The notes: generated by a model not told the origin, from the letters alone. 64,000 nucleotides of DNA from Pristiophorus japonicus (GCF_044704955.1 NC_091982.1:111972001-112036000); one strand, 5' to 3'; numbered from the stretch's first letter, positions 8,831-64,000 are shown. Translations and numbers: made by a program.

Positions 8831-9095
8831 TGTCTGCCTCCATTAATGTTAAATATGTAAATCTAGATCTCTCATTTGAATGTAATTTTCATTTCAGTAT
8901 ACAGCATACAGTACTCCTATTGTGCATTTCTGGGTTTAAATCACAAGGTTGAGCACTTTTTTTCTGGAATGTGGCCATCACTGGCAAGGCCAGCATTTAT
9001 TGCCCATCCCTAATTGTCCTTGAGAAGGTAGTGGTGAACCGCCTTTTTCAACAGCTGCAGTCCCAGTGGCGAAGGTATTCCCACAGAGCTGTTAA

Positions 9096-9447
9096 ATGCA
9101 GGAAGAATGTTCTCGATGTTGGGGAAGTCCAGAACCAGGGGACACAGTCTAAGGATAAGGGGTAAGCCATTTAGGACTGAGATGAGGAGAAACTTCTTCA
9201 TTCAGAGAGTTGTTAACCTGTGGAATTCCGTACCGCAGAGAGTTGTTAATGCCAGTTTGTTGGATATATTCAAGAGGGAGTTAGATTTGGCCCTTACGGC
9301 TAAAGGGATCAAGGGGTATGGAGAGAAAGCAGGAAAGGGGTACTGAGGTGAATGATCAGCCATGATCTTATTGAATGGTGGTGCAGGCTCGAAGGGCCGA
9401 ATGGCCTACTCCTGCACCTATTTTCTATGTTTCTATGTTTCTATGTT
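9096..9447 (+). mobile_element. CR1 3' fragment nested in family B LINE
   Basis: LGKSRTRGHSLRIRGKPFRTEMRRNFF; (TTTCTATG)3 tail; TGTTA repeated at both junctions; host sequence resumes at ~9448. Confidence 0.9.
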
Positions 9448-10267
9448 AGAGAGGGAGATCCAGGATATTGACTCAGCGACGATGAAGGAACGACGATATA
9501 ATTCCAAGTCAGGATGGTGCGTAACATGGTGAGGAACTTGCAGGTGATGGTGTTCCCATTCGCCTGCTACCCTTATCTTTCTAGGTGGTAGAGGTCGGGG
9601 GTTTTGGAGGTGCTGTTGAAGAAGCCTTGGCGAGTTGCTGCATTGCATCTTGTAAATGGAACACAGTGCAGACACGGTACGCCAGTGGTGGAGGGAGTGA
9701 ATGTTTAAGGTGGTGGATGGGGCACCGATTAAGCGGGTTGCTTTGTCCTGGATGGTGTTGAGCTTCTTGAGTGTTATAGGAGCTGGAGCTGCACTCATCC
9801 AGGCAACCAGAGAGTATTCCCTCATACTCCTGAGTTGCGCCTCACCGATTGTGGAAAGGCTTTGAGGAGTCAGGAGGGGAGACACTCGTCGCAGACTACC
9901 CAGCCTCTGACCTGCTCTTGTGGCCACATTAATTATGTGGCTGATCCAGTTATGTTTCTGGTCAATGGTGATCCCCAAGATGTTGATGGTGGGGGATTCA
10001 GCAATGGTAATGCCGTTGTGGAGATAGTCATTGCCTGGCACTTGTGTGGCGCGAATATTAATTGAAACTTATCAGCCCAAGCCTGAATGTCGTCCAGGTC
10101 TTGCTGCATGCAGGCATGGGCTGCTCCATTATCTGAGGAGTTGCAAATGGAACTGAACACTGTGCACTCATCAGTGAACTTCCCCACTTTTGACCTTACG
10201 ATGGAGGGAAGGTCATTGATGAAGCAGCTGAAGATGGTTGGGCCTAGGACACTGCCCTGAAGAACTC

Positions 10268-11604
10268 AGTCCATTATTAAGGAAGCAGTAGCGGGACATT
10301 TGGAAAACTATGATTCAATCAAGCAGAGTCAGCATGGTTTATGAAAGGGAAAGCATGTTTGACAAATTTACTGGAGCACTCTGAAGATGTAACAAGCAGG
10401 GTGGATAAGGGGGAACCAGTGGATGTGGTGTATTTGGATTTCCAGAAGGCATTCAATAAGGTACCACATAAGAGGTTACTGCACAAATAAAAGCTCACAG
10501 GGTTGGGGGTAATATATTAGCATGGATAGAGGATTGGCTAACTAGCAGAAAAGAGAGTGTCGGGATAAATGGGTCATTATCCGGTTGCCAAACAGTGACT
10601 AGTGGGGTGTCGCAGGGATCAGTGCTGGGTCCTCAAATATTTACAATCTATATTAATGACTTGGGTGAAGGGACTGAGTGTAATGTAGCCATGTTTGCTG
10701 ATGATACAAAGCTGGGTGGGAACCAAAAGTGAGGACACAGAAAATCTGCAAAGGGATATAGACAGGCTAAGTGAGTGGGCAAACATTTGGCAGATGGAGT
10801 ATAATGTGGGAAAATGTGAGGTTACCCACTTTGGCAGTAAAAATAGAAGAGGAAATTATAATTTAAATGGAGAAAAATTGCAAAGTGCTGGAATACAGAG
10901 GGACCTGGGGGTCCTTGTGCATGAAACACAAAAAGTGAGTATGCAGGTACAGCAAGTAATCAGCAAGGCAAATGGAATGCTGGCCTTTATTGCAAGGGGG
11001 ATAGAGTATAAAAACAGAGAAGTCCTGCTACAACTGTACAGGGTATTGGTGATGCCACACCTGGCGTACTGCATACAGTTTTAGTCTCCGTATTTAAGGA
11101 AGGAGAAACTTGCATTGGAGGCTGTTCAGAGATTAGGTTCACTAGGTTGATTCTGGAGATGAGGGGGTTGACTTATGAGGATAGATTGAATAAGCTGGGC
11201 CTATACACATTGGAGTTCAGAAGAATGAGAGGTGATCTTATTGAAATTTAGAAGTTAATGAGGGGGCTCGAAAAGGTGGATGCAGAGAGGATATTTCCAC
11301 CCATAGAGGAAACTAAAACTCGGGGACATAAGGGGCCGCCTATTTAAAATTGACATGAGGAGAAATTTCTTCCTTCAGAGAGTTGTAAATCTATGGAATT
11401 CTCTGCCCCAGATAGCTGTGGAGGCTAGGTCATTGAATATATTTAAGGTGGAGATAATCAGATTTTTGAGCGATAAGGGAGTAAAGGGTTATGGGGAGCG
11501 AGCAGGGAAGTGGAGCTGAGTCCATGATCAGATCAACCATGATCTTATTGAATGGCAGAGCAGGCTCAAGGGGCCAAATGGCCTACTCCTGCTCTTATTT
11601 CTTA
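10268..11604 (+). mobile_element. CR1 RT/3' fragment (subfamily with TTCTTAT tail)
   Basis: Decayed RT (QHG, DFQKAF, FADD regions); 3' UTR GGGAAGTGGAGCTGAGTCCATGATCAG. Confidence 0.9.
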
Positions 11605-12522
11605 TATCTCGAAGTTTGCAGATGACACTAAGCTGGGTGGCGTTGTGAGCTGTGAGGAGGACGCTAAGAGGCTGCAGGTGACTTGGACAGGTTAGGTGAG
11701 TGGGCAAATGCATGGCAGATGCAGTATAATGTGGATAAATGTGAGGTTATCCACTTTGGTGGCAAAAACAGGAAGAATATTATCTGAATGGTGACAGATT
11801 AGGTAAAGGGGAGGTGCATTGGGACCTGGGTGTCATGGTACATCAGTCATTGAAGTTTGGCATACAGGTACAGCAGGCGGTGAAGAAGGCAAATGGCATG
11901 TTGGCCTTCATAGCTAGAGGATTTGAGTATAGGAGCAGGGAGGTCTTACTGCAGTTGCACAGAGCTTTGGTGAGGCCACACCTGGAATATTGTGTTCAGT
12001 TTTGGTCTCCAAATCTGAGGAAGGACGGTCTTGCTATTGAGGGAGTACAGCGAAGGTTCACCAGATTGATTCCCGGGATGGCCGGACTGACATATGAGGA
12101 GAGACTGGATCAACTGGGCTTGTATCCACTGGAGAGGATCTCATAGAAACATATAAAATTCTGACAGGATTGGACAGGTTAGAGGCAGGAAGAATGTTCC
12201 TGTTGCTGGGGGGTTCCAGAACCAGAGGTCACAGTCTAAGAATAAGGGGTAAGCCATTTAGGACTGAGATGAGGAGAAACTTCTTCACTCAGAGAGTGGT
12301 TAACCTGTGGAATTCTCTATCGCAGAAAGTTGTTGAGGCCAGTTTGTTAGATATATTTAAAAGGGAGGTAGATGTAGCCCTTATGGCCAAAGGGATCAAG
12401 GGGTATGGAGAGAAAGCAGGAAAGGGGTACTGAGGTTGAATGATCAGCCATGATCTTATTGAATGGTGGTGCAGGCTCGAGGGGTCGAATGGCCTGCTCC
12501 TGCACCTATTTTCTATGTTTCT
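11605..12522 (+). mobile_element. CR1 RT/3' fragment (subfamily with TTTCTATG tail), tandem with the previous copy
   Basis: Starts at AAGTTTGCAGATGACACTAAG (KFADDTK); VRPHLEYCVQFWSP; AACTC repeated at 10263-10267 and 12523-12527 around the pair. Confidence 0.9.
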
Positions 12523-14689
12523 AACTCCTGCAGCGATGTCCTGGGGCTTGGATGATTGACCTCCAACAACCACAACCATCTTCCTTTGTGCCAGGTATGT
12601 CTCCTGATTCTCATCAACTTCAATATTAATAGGGCTCCTTGATGCCACACTCGGTCAAATGCTGCCTTGATGTCAAGGGCAGTCACTCTCACCTAACCGC
12701 TGAATTCAGCTCTTTTATCCATCTTTGGACCAAGGCTGTAATGAGGTCTGGAGCTGAGTGGTCTTGGCAGAACCCAAACTTAGCATCGGTGAGCAGGTTG
12801 TTGGTGAGTAAGTGCCGCTTAATAGTACTATTGACGCCATCTTCCATCACATTGCTGATGATTGAGAGTAGACTGATGGGGCAGTAATTAGCCGGATTGG
12901 ATTTGTCCTGCTTTTTGTGGACAGGACATACCTGGGCAGTTTTTCACATTGTCGGGTATATACCAGTGTTGTAGCTGTACTGGTACAGCTTGGTTAGAGG
13001 CGCATAAGTCTTCAGCACAAGTCTTCAGCACAACAGTCGGGATGTTGTTGGGGCCCATAGCCTTTGCTATATCCAATGTGCTCAGCAGTTTCTTGATATC
13101 ATGTGGAGTGAATCGAATTGGCTGAAGACTAGCTTCTGTGATGGTGGGGACCTCAGGAGGAGGCCAATGTGGATCATCCACTCAGCACTTCTGGCTGAAG
13201 CTGGTTACAAATGCTTCAGCCTTGTCTTTTGCACTTGTATGCTGGGCTCTGCCATCATTGAGGATGGGAATATTCGTGGACCCTCCTCCTCCCGTTAGTT
13301 GTTTAATGGCCCGCCACCATTCACCTGGATGTGGCAGGACTGCAGAGCTGTGAAGTGATCCGTTGCTTGAGGGATCGCTTAGCTCTGTCTATAACGTTCT
13401 GCTTCCGCTGCTTAGCATGCACATAGTCCTGTGTTGCAGCTTCCCCAGTTTGGCACCTCATTTTTATATATGCCAGGTGTTGTTCCTGGCATGCTCTTCT
13501 GCACTCCTTATTCAACCAAGGTTGCTCCCCTGGCTTGATGGTAATGGTAGAGTGAGGGATATGCCGGGCCATGAGGTTACAGATTGTGGTGGAATACAAT
13601 TCTGCTGCTGCTGATGATCCACAGCACCTCACGGATGCCCAGTTTTGAGCTGCTAGATCTGTTCTGAATCAATCCCATTTGGCACGGTGGTAGAGCCACA
13701 CAACACGATGGCGGGTGCCCTCAGTGTGAAGACAGGACTTCGTCTCTACAGTGACTGTGCCATGGCCACTTCTGTCGATACTGTCATTGACAGATGCATC
13801 CGTGATGGGTAGATTGTTGAGGACAAGATCAAGTAGTTTTTTTCCCTCGTGTTGGTTCTCTCACCACGAGTCACAGACCCAGTCTGGCAGCTGTGTCCTT
13901 CAGGACTCAGCCAGTTTGGTCACATGGTGCTACAAATCCACTCTTGGTGATGAGCATTGAAGTCCCCCACCCAGAGTACATTCTGTGCCCTTGCTACCCT
14001 CAATGCTTCTTCCAAGTGGTGTTCAACATGGAGGAGGACTGATTCACCAGCTGTGGGTGGTAGGTGGTTTCCTTGCCCATGCTTGACCTGAAGCCATGAG
14101 ACTCCGTGGGATTCAGAGTCAATGTTGCGGACTCCCATGGCCACTCCCTCCTGACTGTATACCACTGTACTGGTACCTTGGGTGGGTCTGTCCAGTCGGT
14201 GGGACAAGACATACCCAGGGATGTTGCTGGAGGAGTCTGGGACATTTGCTGAAGGGTATCATTCTATTCATATGACTATGTCAGGCTGTTGCTTGACTAG
14301 GCTGTGTGACAGCTCTCCCAATTTTGCACAAGTCCCCAGATGTTAGTGGGGAGGACTTTGCAGAGTCGACTGGGCTGTGTGTGTCATGTCTGAAGGTTGA
14401 TGTCAGGTGGTCCGTCCGGTTTTATTCTTATTATTGTTTTCAGTAGCAGTTTGTTACAACTGAATGACTTGCTAGGCCATTTCAGAGGGCAGTTGAGAAT
14501 CAACCACGTTGCTGTGGGTCTGAAGTCACAGGTAAGCCAGACCAGGGAAGGACGACAGATTTCCTTCCCTAAAGGACATTAGCGAACCAGATGGGTATTT
14601 ACGACAATCCGATAGTTTCATGGTCACTATTATGATACCAGCTTTTTCTTCCAGATTTATTTAATTAACTGAATTTTAATTCCCCAGAT

Positions 14690-14780
14690 TCTGTGGTGGG
14701 ATTTGAACTCACGTCTCTGTATCATTAGTCCAGACCGCTGGATTACTTACTAGTCCAGTAACATAACCACTATGTTACCA
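14690..14780 (-). promoter_or_regulatory. tRNA-derived internal Pol III promoter at the 5' end of family B LINE
   Basis: Minus strand: A-box-like TAACATAGTGG; anticodon-arm-like CTGGA-CTAGTAA(GTAA)-TCCAG; B box GAGTTCAAATCC. Confidence 0.75.
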
Positions 14781-14802
14781 TTGCTGCATTTGTTTAAATA
14801 TT

Positions 14803-15504: not shown

Positions 15505-15714
15505 AATGTAGTTACAGCAAAATAATTGCTCTGATGGACGTCTAACAGCTGCTAGTCTATTACAGCTATCAGTGTTACGTTAAAATATCAACATTTTCAA
15601 ATGGAACCATTTTTCTGTGGATAATAAAACTAATGTTCCTAGCAAGACCTCTGTTACTTTCTTGTGGAGATGGTACAAGGAGGGAGAGTCAGTCTGTGGG
15701 ATAATTTAGGGCAC

Positions 15715-16170
15715 AGCACTCAAGAAGCTTGGCTCCATCCAGGACAAAGCAGCCCGCTTGATCGTCAGCCCATCCACCACCTTCAACATTCACTCCCTCC
15801 ATTAACACAGCACAGTGGCTACAGTGTGTACTGCCCACAGGATGCACTGCAGCAACTTGCCAAGACTTCTTCGGCAGCATCTCCCAAACCTGCGACCTCT
15901 ATCACCTAAAAGACAAGGGCAGCAGGTGCATAGGAACACCATCCCCTCCAAGTTCCCCTTCAAATCACACACCATCCTGACTTGGAAATATATCGGCCGT
16001 TCCTTCATCGTCGCTGGGTCAAAATCCTGGAACTGCCTCCCTAACAGCACTGTGGGAATACCTTCACCACAGGGACTGCAATGGCTCACCACCATCTTCT
16101 CGAGGGCAATTGGGATGAGTAATAAATGCCTGTCTTGCTAGCGACGTCCATATCCCAAGACTGAATAAAA
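15715..16170 (+). mobile_element. Family B LINE 3' fragment
   Basis: HCSNLPRLLRQHLPNLRPL; ends GGCAATTGGGATGAGTAATAAATGCC. Confidence 0.85.
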
Positions 16171-23945: not shown

Positions 23946-24622
23946 TTTTTAGAACACATTCTCAGAATGTGGGCTTCCCTGGCAAGGCCGGCATTTATTG
24001 CCCATCCTTAGTTGCTCTTAACTGCTCTTACTAGGCATCTTCAAAGGGCAGTTAAAAGTCAACCACGTTGGTGTGAGACTGGAGTCACATATAGGCCAGA
24101 CTGGTTAAGGACGGCAGGTTTACTTCCCTAAAGGGCATTAATGAACTAGTTGAGTTTTAATGACAATCCGGTAGTTTCATGGTCACTTTTACTGATACCA
24201 GCTTTTTATTTCCAATTTCTTTTACAACTGGCTTCAAATTCTCAAACTGACATGTTGTGATTTGAACTCCCTTTCTCTGGATTATTAGTCCGGTAATGTA
24301 GCCTTTAGCTGGACTGGTTCTTGACTGGGGCAAAGATGGCATCTTACAGAAGGTAAATGGATTAGCAGATAACACATGATCCACGGGATCTTTTCGACAC
24401 ATCTCGATTGCCTGAGGGGATCGGAGAGGAATTTCCCACAGTTTTTTTCTCCCTTGTTGGCCCTGGGTTTTGCCTCTCCCAGGAGATTATACGCCTGTGA
24501 TGTGAGGTAGGAAGTGTCGAGTCACGATGCTCTGGCCATCATGAGTGTGGGGCAGGCTTGATGGATCAGCTGGTCTTTTTATGCCTGTCATTTTCATATG
24601 CTCGTATAACCATTGCACTATT
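23946..24622 (-). mobile_element. tRNA-derived SINE = family B LINE 5' ~320 nt + family B 3' tail (head interrupted by a CR1 3' piece)
   Basis: 24020-24300 aligns by eye with 14460-14760; 23946-24019 aligns with 8957-9022; B box GAGTTCAAATC on the minus strand at ~24259-24269. Confidence 0.85.
24303..24604 (+). mobile_element. CR1 3'-UTR fragment inserted in the SINE head
   Basis: CGATTGCCTGAGGGGATCGGAGAGGAATTT...GGGTTTTGCCTCTCCCAGGAGAT is a reverse-complement match to ~50210-50325; CR1-like terminal hairpin. Confidence 0.65.
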
Positions 24623-26649: not shown

Positions 26650-27654
26650 CAGAAAACCAGCGCAATGCTGAGCGCAGTTTGCATCCGATTTGCCAATTAC
26701 ACCCAAAGCCGAAATTCTACCCCATGAACTCCCGTACCTCGTAAACCCACGACCTCTACCATCTAGAAGGACAAGGGCAGCAGGCGCATGGGAACACCAT
26801 CACCTCTACATTCCCCTCCAAGTTACACACCATCCTGACTTGGCAGAATATCGCCGTTCCTTCATCGTTGTTGGGTCAAAATCTTGGAATTCAATACCTA
26901 ACAGCATTATGGGAGTGCCTTCACCACCCGGACTGCAGCGGTTCAAGAAGGCGACTCACCACCACCTTCTCAAGGGCAATTAGGGATGGGCAATAAATGC
27001 TGGCCTTTCCAGCGACACCCACAACCCAGCAATGAACAAAAAACAAACCAAAGTATACTGGAGCAGCTTCCCAAAATGATTCAGTTGATTCTTGACAAAC
27101 ACACACTAGATTGCCAACTTGATGTGCATTGTTGGAGCAGCCCACTATGGAAGTCATGTGCTTGAGAGGTTTACTCTGAGCCAAAGCACTTCTGCAAGCT
27201 TTCTGGAGGAGTTTTGCTACTTCTTGCTTGGCTTGCTGATGGGAGAATTGCAAAATAATGAGAGCCTCTATTTATGAAAAGCCAAAGCTGAGGCACTCCA
27301 ACTAACTTAATCGATTCACACCTCTTTCTGGCCAATCGTAGGGCAGTTGTGAACATGGTTCAGGAAGGATGCTGAGGTCTAAACCAAAAGGGAAACCCAA
27401 AGTAACTCAAATGAAACTCTTTCATGTTAGTTTGTGAATATGGAAACTAACGATATACTGCCAAGTCAGGATGGTGTGTAACTTGGAGGGGAATGTAGAG
27501 GTGATGGTGTTCCCATGCGCCTGCTGCCCTTGTCCTTCTAGATGGTAGAGGTCGTGGGTTTACGAGGTACGGGAGTTCATGGGGTAGAATTTCGGCTTTG
27601 GGTGTAATTGGCAATTCGGATGCAAACTGCGCTCAGCATTGCGCTGGTTTTCTG
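26650..27654. repeat. 204-bp inverted repeat (arms 26650-26853 and 27451-27654, 597-bp spacer)
   Basis: Arms are reverse complements with 2 mismatches by eye. Confidence 0.95.
26735..27045 (+). mobile_element. Family B LINE 3' fragment
   Basis: NPRPLPSRRTRAAGAWEHHH; ends GGCAATTAGGGATGGGCAATAAATGCTGGCC plus A-rich tail. Confidence 0.85.
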
Positions 27655-42740: not shown

Positions 42741-42906
42741 AAGATGAAGGTAAGGATTTCAAGCTGATATACCAGGAGACATGGAGGTTGGTGATGACTG
42801 TATGGGGCTTTATCAGGATAGATATAGGCAATGAATTTCAGGATGGGTTAGAGTTTGTGTAGAGCAGAGATGAGGAGCACAATAAGCAATCGTGCCTTGA
42901 AGTAAT

Positions 42907-43190
42907 GAAAGAAAGAAAGACTTGCATTTATATAGTGCCTTTCACGACATCCGGACGTTCCAAAGCACTTTACAGTCAATGAAGTACTTTGTGAAATGTA
43001 GTCATTGTTGTAATGTAGGAAAGACGGAAGGCAATTTATGCACAGCAAGCTCCCAAAAACAGCAATGTGATAATGACTAGATAATCTGTATTTTAGTGAT
43101 GTTGATTGAGGGATAAATATTGGCCAGGACACTGGGGATAACTCTCCTGTTCTTCGAAATAATACCATGGGATCTTTTACGTCGGCCTGA
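42907..43190 (-). mobile_element. Deu-domain SINE 3' two-thirds
   Basis: Reverse complement of 32545-32815, including CCATGGGATCTTTTAC. Confidence 0.8.
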
Positions 43191-49008: not shown

Positions 49009-49312
49009 TGATGAAGCAGCTGAAGATGGATGGGCCTAGGACACTGCCCTGAGGAACACCTGCAGCAATATCCTGGGGCTGAAATGATCTGGAGCACAAG
49101 TCTTCAGGACTACAGCTGGGGTGTTGACGGGACCCATAGCCTTTGTTGTATCCATTGCGCTCAGCTGTTTTTCGATATTACGGGGAGTGAATCTAATTGG
49201 TTGAAGACTGGCATCTGTGATGGTGGTGACCTCAGGAGGAGACTGAGATGGATCATCCACTCAGCACTTTTGGCTGAGGATGGTTGGAAACTCTTCAACC
49301 TTGTCTTTTGCT
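49009..49312 (-). mobile_element. Family B LINE internal fragments
   Basis: DDPSQSPPEVTTITDASLQPIRFTP..KAMGP; homologous to 10218-10267 and 13015-13230. Confidence 0.8.
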
Positions 49313-63480: not shown

Positions 63481-63699
63481 TTAAATATTATAATGGGGAG
63501 ACAATGCCTCCATTTTAACAGTGATTCTATTTTTAACTACAGTCCGCCGGCTTTCTTCAGCCCTGGGAAAACCGGCAGCAGAAAGGAGGCAGGAAAGGCG
63601 GCCGATGAGGTAAGCGTCTTACAGCACTGCTCATGGGCCAGGAGAAGTGGGCGTGTTTCCTACAGGCCCAACAAGTATACCTGTAAACTCCGCCTGCTG

Positions 63700-63915
63700 C
63701 CTCCCCCCACCACCCACCCCGTGATCAGACCCCTAACCACACCTTCCCCCCCCCCATGATCAGACCCCTAACCACACACCCGCACCCACCCCCCCGTGAT
63801 CAGACCCCTAACCGCACCCCCGCACCCACCCCTCCCGTGATCAGACCCCTAACCGCACCCCCGCACCCACCCCTCCCGTGATCAGACCCCTAACCACACC
63901 CCCCCCCCACCCCCC
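63700..63915 (+). repeat. C-rich minisatellite, ~5 copies of a ~40 bp unit
   Basis: Unit CCCGTGATCAGACCCCTAACCGCACCCCCGCACCCACCCCT. Confidence 0.9.
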
Positions 63916-64000
63916 ACTACACCTATCCACTCTCAGCTCCGCTGCAGCCTTGTGCTGCAGAGTTCCCGCCCAACAGGCAGCTAAGCTGGCCTGTCAATAG

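Follow-up and report, generated by a model that had tools for sequence, protein, structure and literature searches.

The 64,000-nt stretch of the Pristiophorus japonicus genome analysed here (GCF_044704955.1 NC_091982.1:111972001-112036000; hereafter the window, whose positions serve as coordinates) carries a long interspersed element (LINE) on its minus strand. Sequence comparison confirmed this as a decayed APE-reverse transcriptase (RT) LINE without ORF1, 3.2 kb long without two nested CR1 insertions, that matches published consensuses of elasmobranch Zenon LINEs (PMC13343379). The original prediction had described one minus-strand element of about 3.2 kb once the nested CR1s are removed, and excising both inserts left 3222 nt. 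It had also proposed that a tRNA head is joined directly to the APE-RT open reading frame (ORF), and no tail of a short interspersed element (SINE) lies between the two. The APE N-terminus (KVL..NIWGL..KQQPDIVI) begins at 14359, preceded by an Arg-rich open stretch in the 3′ part of the leader that runs into APE. Decay has broken the APE frame over two frames, bearing out the description of the copy as decayed. The larger insert was identified as CR1 by tblastn, and the small insert is 91% identical to its end; both lie antisense to the host element and have clean 5-bp target-site duplications (TSDs). Coordinates are collected in table 1.

Table 1. Features of the element and of two other SINE-like repeats in the window.
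Feature	Position	Strand	Remark
tRNA-derived head	14698..14785	minus	family 5′ end at about 14785, at about tRNA position +1
A box	14777-14767	minus	within head
Anticodon-like arm	14758-14738	minus	carries private 4-nt duplication
Second, duplicated anticodon-like arm	14733-14717	minus	within head
B box, GTTCAAATC	14708-14700	minus	within head
Leader, about 340 nt	14360..14697	minus	common to short head + tail derivatives up to about 14450
Leader ATG, TAG and TAA	14480, 14474, 14456	minus	in APE frame at commonest spacing
Decayed ORF, part 1: APE endonuclease, linker, RT start	12523..14359	minus	Pfam on natural sister copies
Nested CR1 insertion, two CR1 3′ pieces	10268..12522	plus	TSD GAGTT (5 bp); outside host element
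Decayed ORF, part 2: remaining RT and C-terminal region	9444..10267	minus	
Nested CR1 3′ fragment	9095..9443	plus	TSD TAACA (5 bp); outside host element
ORF end, 3′ untranslated region of about 50 nt, A7 tail	8957..9094	minus	
Stop	9012-9010	minus	
AATAAA	9001-8996	minus	
A7	8963-8957	minus	
Short head + leader + tail SINE-like derivative	23965..24310	minus	older single-arm subfamily
Separate SINE with Deu motif (43161-43177)	42905-43185	minus	5′-truncated, TTTC-repeat tail

The tRNA head is the true 5′ end of the family. A query across the head-leader-APE junction gave 13,422 candidates in the 5.9-Gb genome, and all 40 that were scored span the junction, for which the query selects. Thirty junction loci were fetched; they share a sharp start at the head with unrelated upstream flanks, apart from two duplicated groups, and represent 27 independent sites. 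The junction is thus common to many independent copies, as predicted, and not unique to this locus. Because the junction query itself selects the junction, head-less queries were used as a repeat test. With an APE-only query, 12 of 29 other copies reached the start of the head (two of them across an insertion), 14 ended within the head or leader and three at or in APE; these 29 copies had no other shared 5′ end, and collinear sharing beyond the head occurred only in one duplicated pair. A mid-ORF protein query returned 30 loci, six of which reach the start, while 11 end in the head or leader and 13 in the ORF (flanks judged by eye). The longer copies in these two sets have no ORF1 or other 5′ untranslated region, in agreement with the predicted lack of ORF1. 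Both head and tail were present in 23 of 40 longer stretches, and lie about 3.15-3.33 kb apart where uninterrupted. Some copies are rearranged: at one locus (L207) the head is joined directly to mid-ORF pieces, and at another (L121) two heads and a tail piece stand ahead of an otherwise whole ORF. Two further copies (L125, L092) contain inserted protease/RT/integrase fragments resembling those of long terminal repeat (LTR) retrotransposons.

The headed element codes for protein. In an alignment of 25 copies, 24 of which start in the head, with a median divergence of 8% from the column majority, the majority frame has 935 open codons between the start of APE and the stop, and Pfam recognizes Exo_endo_phos_2 and RVT_1 on the natural frames. 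Counting left out variants found in two or three copies as well as CpG changes. Variants private to one copy are neutral (nonsynonymous/synonymous 1309/403), whereas those shared by at least four copies are depleted of amino-acid changes (43/44; Fisher P 1.4e-7), alike in APE, linker, RT and C-terminus. This purifying selection on shared variants supports the existence of several coding masters that carried the head, and with it the autonomy of the headed form and the earlier proposal of a protein-coding element. The family is one unit of 3.2-3.3 kb, made up of head, leader, single APE-RT frame and AATAAA/poly(A) tail, that spread from several masters. Annotated shark genes (SVEP1-like, storkhead-box 1-like, LRRC32-like and anoctamin-7-like) contain ORF pieces of 62-77% identity, which are likely mis-predicted exons.

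A by-eye match to the published consensus 5′ ends would file the family with the elasmobranch CR1-Zenon LINEs. The features of Zenon are found here: no ORF1, a single ORF with APE and RT, and a poly(A) rather than a microsatellite tail. The paper on Zenon LINEs of sharks and rays describes all of them as lacking ORF1 and as having poly(A) (Stuart et al. 2026; PMC13343379). The absence of ORF1 is therefore not new, being a shared, published feature, and the earlier question whether the family had already been described is settled by the consensuses in the same source. All seven published elasmobranch consensuses (SquAca_Zenon-1/2/3 and CarCar, RhiTyp, ScyCan and HypSab Zenon-1, from four sharks and one ray) start with an A box, arm or arms, a B box and the same leader, judged by eye over their first 400 nt. 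The sequence between the boxes varies among them, and the ray B box is short of one base. Over the same length, SquAca_Zenon-1 is by eye nearly identical to the copies described here, head included; the elasmobranch elements are likewise ORF1-less APE-RT LINEs of about 3.3 kb with poly(A), and no sequence difference was seen in the parts compared. The tRNA head and its meaning are unremarked in the text of PMC13343379, which holds no match for 'tRNA' or 'Deu' and states that the elements are absent from repeat repositories. A literature search, which did not cover Repbase and Dfam, found no description of a tRNA-headed autonomous LINE. We are thus dealing with a known family that has a real, conserved feature undescribed in the literature searched, a SINE-type tRNA head on an autonomous element.

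Outside the elasmobranchs, two hagfish and one low-quality coelacanth Zenon consensus have no such start in the first 400 nt. Lepidopteran Zenon likewise has a single ORF, about 3.3 kb and poly(A), and yields bipartite derivatives of its 5′ and 3′ ends; the moth derivative Persaeus lacks both homology to tRNA and a promoter for RNA polymerase III (Pol III), whereas here both the LINE and its derivatives carry the tRNA head (PMC6740152). Because the hagfish and coelacanth consensuses start otherwise and Persaeus is without tRNA homology, the head looks like an elasmobranch acquisition, a timing drawn from few outgroups. The nearest proteins are of about 950-1000 amino acids, several on 3.2-3.8-kb contigs, with 33-41% identity, and the named ones come from lancelet and moth. 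A tree over APE, linker and early RT only, built with no clade-labelled Zenon reference, does not assign the clade. DNA of a non-shark relative was represented by one partial contig that does not include the 5′ end.

The head itself is tRNA-derived, and the start of the family coincides with tRNA +1. The strict patterns of the A and B boxes are each matched by 16 of 32 copies, as decay of about 8% predicts, and the acceptor stem of the head is unpaired by eye. The anticodon arm quoted in the original prediction corresponds to the family form, from which the window copy differs by a private 4-nt duplication (CTAGTAAGTAA). The resemblance to tRNA-Thr(AGT) is not secure as an assignment of the donor because a second, duplicated arm is present and the two loops read AGT and AAT. 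Neither ARAGORN nor Rfam found a tRNA in the window. In a scan of 15 other loci, Rfam recognized family heads as tRNA weakly, in three of the 15 at 23.6-29.1 bits: one single-arm head reached 29.1 bits (gathering threshold 29) and two double-arm heads 23.6-24.5 bits, while the remaining 12 loci gave nothing. The element thus has at its 5′ end the A/B-box tRNA-derived head of a SINE2, but at 3.2 kb and with a coding frame it is not short and non-coding, as only its short derivatives are.

These derivatives join head and leader to the tail. A head-only query returned 29 loci, comprising eight LINEs, 16 head + tail elements and five others. The junctions of the derivatives vary, often at microhomologies, and some derivatives extend further into the LINE leader than is usual. 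LINE copies, too, can bear a single-arm head, an older type recognizable by its own diagnostic letters (three of 30 loci and one from another search); both single-arm LINE copies that were fetched in full have the matching tail letter, and a further search for such copies returned mostly double-arm ones. We surveyed 60 short elements from 89 loci, 30 of which had been chosen by a single head letter. In the 44 elements that could be scored, the type of head goes with the letter in the tail (12:3 versus 1:28, P 2.6e-7). The short elements fall into 42 junction bins, and this pattern fits an origin of the derivatives by repeated internal deletion from whichever LINE subfamily was active at the time. 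The derivative data are silent on whether a SINE donated the head originally. With LINE 5′ and 3′ ends joined by internal deletion, the short elements are built like a SIDE of the Persaeus type. They also resemble Bov-tA, AfroSINE and SINE2-1_ACar in combining a tRNA head, a LINE 5′ part and a LINE 3′ tail; in those SINEs, however, the head was added to a non-coding bipartite RTE or Vingi piece, whereas here it sits on a full coding LINE of the CR1 group (PMC5786205).

By established knowledge LINEs are transcripts of RNA polymerase II (Pol II), and tRNA heads define non-coding SINEs. A precedent for uncapped LINE RNA is R2, a non-LTR element with a single ORF whose RNA, uncapped and not made by Pol II, is probably translated without a clear AUG; unlike the element here, it is co-transcribed with rRNA by RNA polymerase I, has a ribozyme-made 5′ end and a restriction-like endonuclease, and is site-specific. 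We read the locus as a defunct elasmobranch Zenon copy. In full length this element begins with a tRNA-derived head, likely an internal Pol III promoter, and its protein would have been made by cap-independent, non-AUG translation; on the sequence evidence this account as a whole is somewhat probable. Pol III transcription as such, which we infer from the promoter boxes, the start position and the absence of T runs, appears the most likely reading, and we favour it with moderate confidence. An ancestral Zenon would have acquired the head by a template switch onto a tRNA or the RNA of a tRNA-headed SINE, before the split of sharks and rays. Pol III would start at tRNA +1 and cross a body free of runs of four Ts (T4), and the uncapped RNA would run at least to the A tail and might be polyadenylated by way of AAUAAA, like the RNAs of T+ SINEs. 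Translation would need neither a 5′ cap nor an in-frame AUG and would proceed through a non-AUG start, stop read-through or a frameshift. Any internal deletion that keeps head and tail would yield a ready-made SINE, and the swarm of short derivatives would be explained because the promoter sits inside the 5′ end of the element.

T4 runs are absent both from the majority columns, which span 3.3 kb, and from the copy in the window. T4 density is 0.45/kb in family copies versus 3.07/kb in CR1 of the same loci (copies are not independent), and a distant relative has seven T4 runs in 1.8 kb. Mononucleotide shuffles would be expected to give 4.5 runs (P 0.008) and uniform-synonymous controls 5.1 (0/1000 without any). 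This absence of T4 lends modest support to Pol III. T runs are enriched at the base of the A tail (16/59 ends versus 22/236 flank windows). T+ SINEs (B2, Dip and Ves) are Pol III transcripts polyadenylated via AATAAA near the 3′ end and offer a possible model for the tail here; they are short and non-coding with a fixed terminator, whereas here the tail-base T runs occur in a minority of copies only (PMC8466645, PMC10572872). Contigs from four sequencing runs of unconfirmed type cover all 30 element bins, and carry no strand, start or level.

Several observations weigh against the Pol III account. The zero T4 count is not significant against dinucleotide shuffles (expected 1.9, P 0.16) or same-codon shuffles (expected 1.9, P 0.10), and low Phe content is common to the element and its nearest relatives. 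T runs at the tail base can arise or lengthen after insertion, as is seen in B2 (PMC8466645), and poly(A) tails are general to Zenons, even those without a tRNA head (PMC13343379, PMC6740152). TSDs bracketing head and tail, expected from the original prediction, were looked for in full-length copies, which are old, and not found: in one test 4/24 scored 8 or more versus 9.6% in a mismatched-pair control, and in a second 9/24 reached 5 or more versus 5.9 expected, neither of which amounts to an excess beyond mismatched pairs. All copies examined are decayed, with no intact ORF among the copies scored in a search for young ones; for the stingray family, PMC13343379 lists 3 of 612 ORFs as intact. 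Finally, no in-frame Met follows the start of APE until codon 249, and an unusual translation route is therefore needed under any model.

The leader does not readily supply a start codon. Its in-frame ATG is followed by stops at codon 3 (TAG in 28/58 copies) and codon 9 (TAA in 43/58); both positions are open together with the ATG in 6/58 copies, and the distance from this ATG to APE is in frame in 21/45. Another ATG, present in the published consensuses, was found in one of the 38 copies readable there (of 58). RNAalifold predicted helices in the leader; covariation is nil in the decayed copies (1/44 pairs), so we claim no internal ribosome entry site structure. A second leader ATG (14509 onward, minus strand) opens a frame of about 75 codons, out of register with APE, that runs over the start of APE in copies without deletions. 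This frame is open by eye in two published shark consensuses and closed in the ray consensus.

The element could instead be a normal Pol II LINE, with its promoter in the leader or in upstream host DNA and the head either an old captured passenger or a part with a function at the RNA level (stability, RT or ribosome binding). This would agree with how LINEs are generally transcribed and with AATAAA and poly(A); a T-poor, TTC-preferring coding strand can explain the absence of T4, and lepidopteran Zenons work without a tRNA head (PMC6740152). It sits less easily with boxes that persist in sharks and a ray despite changes in the intervening sequence, with a 5′ end at tRNA +1, and with the seven-fold higher number of T4 runs in CR1 of the same loci, and the unpaired acceptor stem (by eye) makes it less likely that a read-through RNA was trimmed in the manner of RNase P. 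We consider this explanation unlikely. Labour might also be split, the Pol III RNA being reverse transcribed while the protein, acting in trans, is translated from other RNAs, namely capped Pol II read-through transcripts of copies that lie in active chromatin. No uncapped RNA would then need translating, and the many short derivatives show that the protein mobilizes non-coding RNAs in trans; yet cis preference would more easily account for the purifying selection seen in the ORF of those masters that were copied, and the missing AUG is left unexplained, which makes this arrangement improbable.

That a SINE landed next to a truncated LINE is already refuted for this locus. This idea, together with the variant that another LINE copies the headed form as a non-autonomous chimera, could appeal to the roughly two-fold excess of head + tail elements over headed LINEs at head-selected loci. 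It has against it the lack of a SINE tail at the junction, the sharing of that junction by independent loci, the lack of an alternative 5′ end in APE- or mid-ORF-selected copies, the selection on the ORF and the same structure in the published consensuses as far as compared, and we regard it as very improbable.

If Pol III transcription is right, the element would break the usual split between LINEs (Pol II, coding) and SINEs (Pol III, non-coding). It would offer a natural example of a Pol III transcript that is translated into a long protein, and would provide a direct route to SINE birth, by deletion from a LINE that already bears the promoter. Head and leader are short, which makes promoter type and cap-independent translation testable with ordinary reporters. 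Even if Pol II is used, repeat libraries of sharks and rays do not reflect that a large SINE-like family has both of its ends in common with one LINE.

SacSINE1 and other DeuSINEs are likewise shark elements with a tRNA head and high copy number; they carry a Deu domain, unlike the element here (PMC5499810, PMC4824008). We considered whether the leader is the Deu domain of SacSINE1 and rejected this, as it is unlike the Deu core given in the PMC7245038 supplement, and the Deu motif is absent from 14360-14785. Since the leader is not the Deu domain, the element would not be SacSINE1, a separation that is drawn by the Deu domain and not by SacSINE1's own consensus. The window does contain a separate SINE with a Deu motif (table 1), probably SacSINE1-like. 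It belongs to an abundant family (65 blastn rows in the fetched loci) and has no blastn match to the head, leader or short derivative. By eye only, the leader is also unlike the printed alignments of the Meta/UCON3 domain of MetaSINE and UCON3-domain SINEs, and V-SINE HE1 is listed with HER1 as its tail partner.

Further Zenon-family fragments lie in the window at 15713-16157 and 26736-27029 on the plus strand and at 27452-27568 and 49009-49311 on the minus strand. A 204-nt inverted repeat (26650-26853 and 27451-27654), with arms 99% complementary and 597 nt apart, overlaps a Zenon 3′ fragment. A C-rich tandem repeat of about 40 nt occupies 63673-63949.

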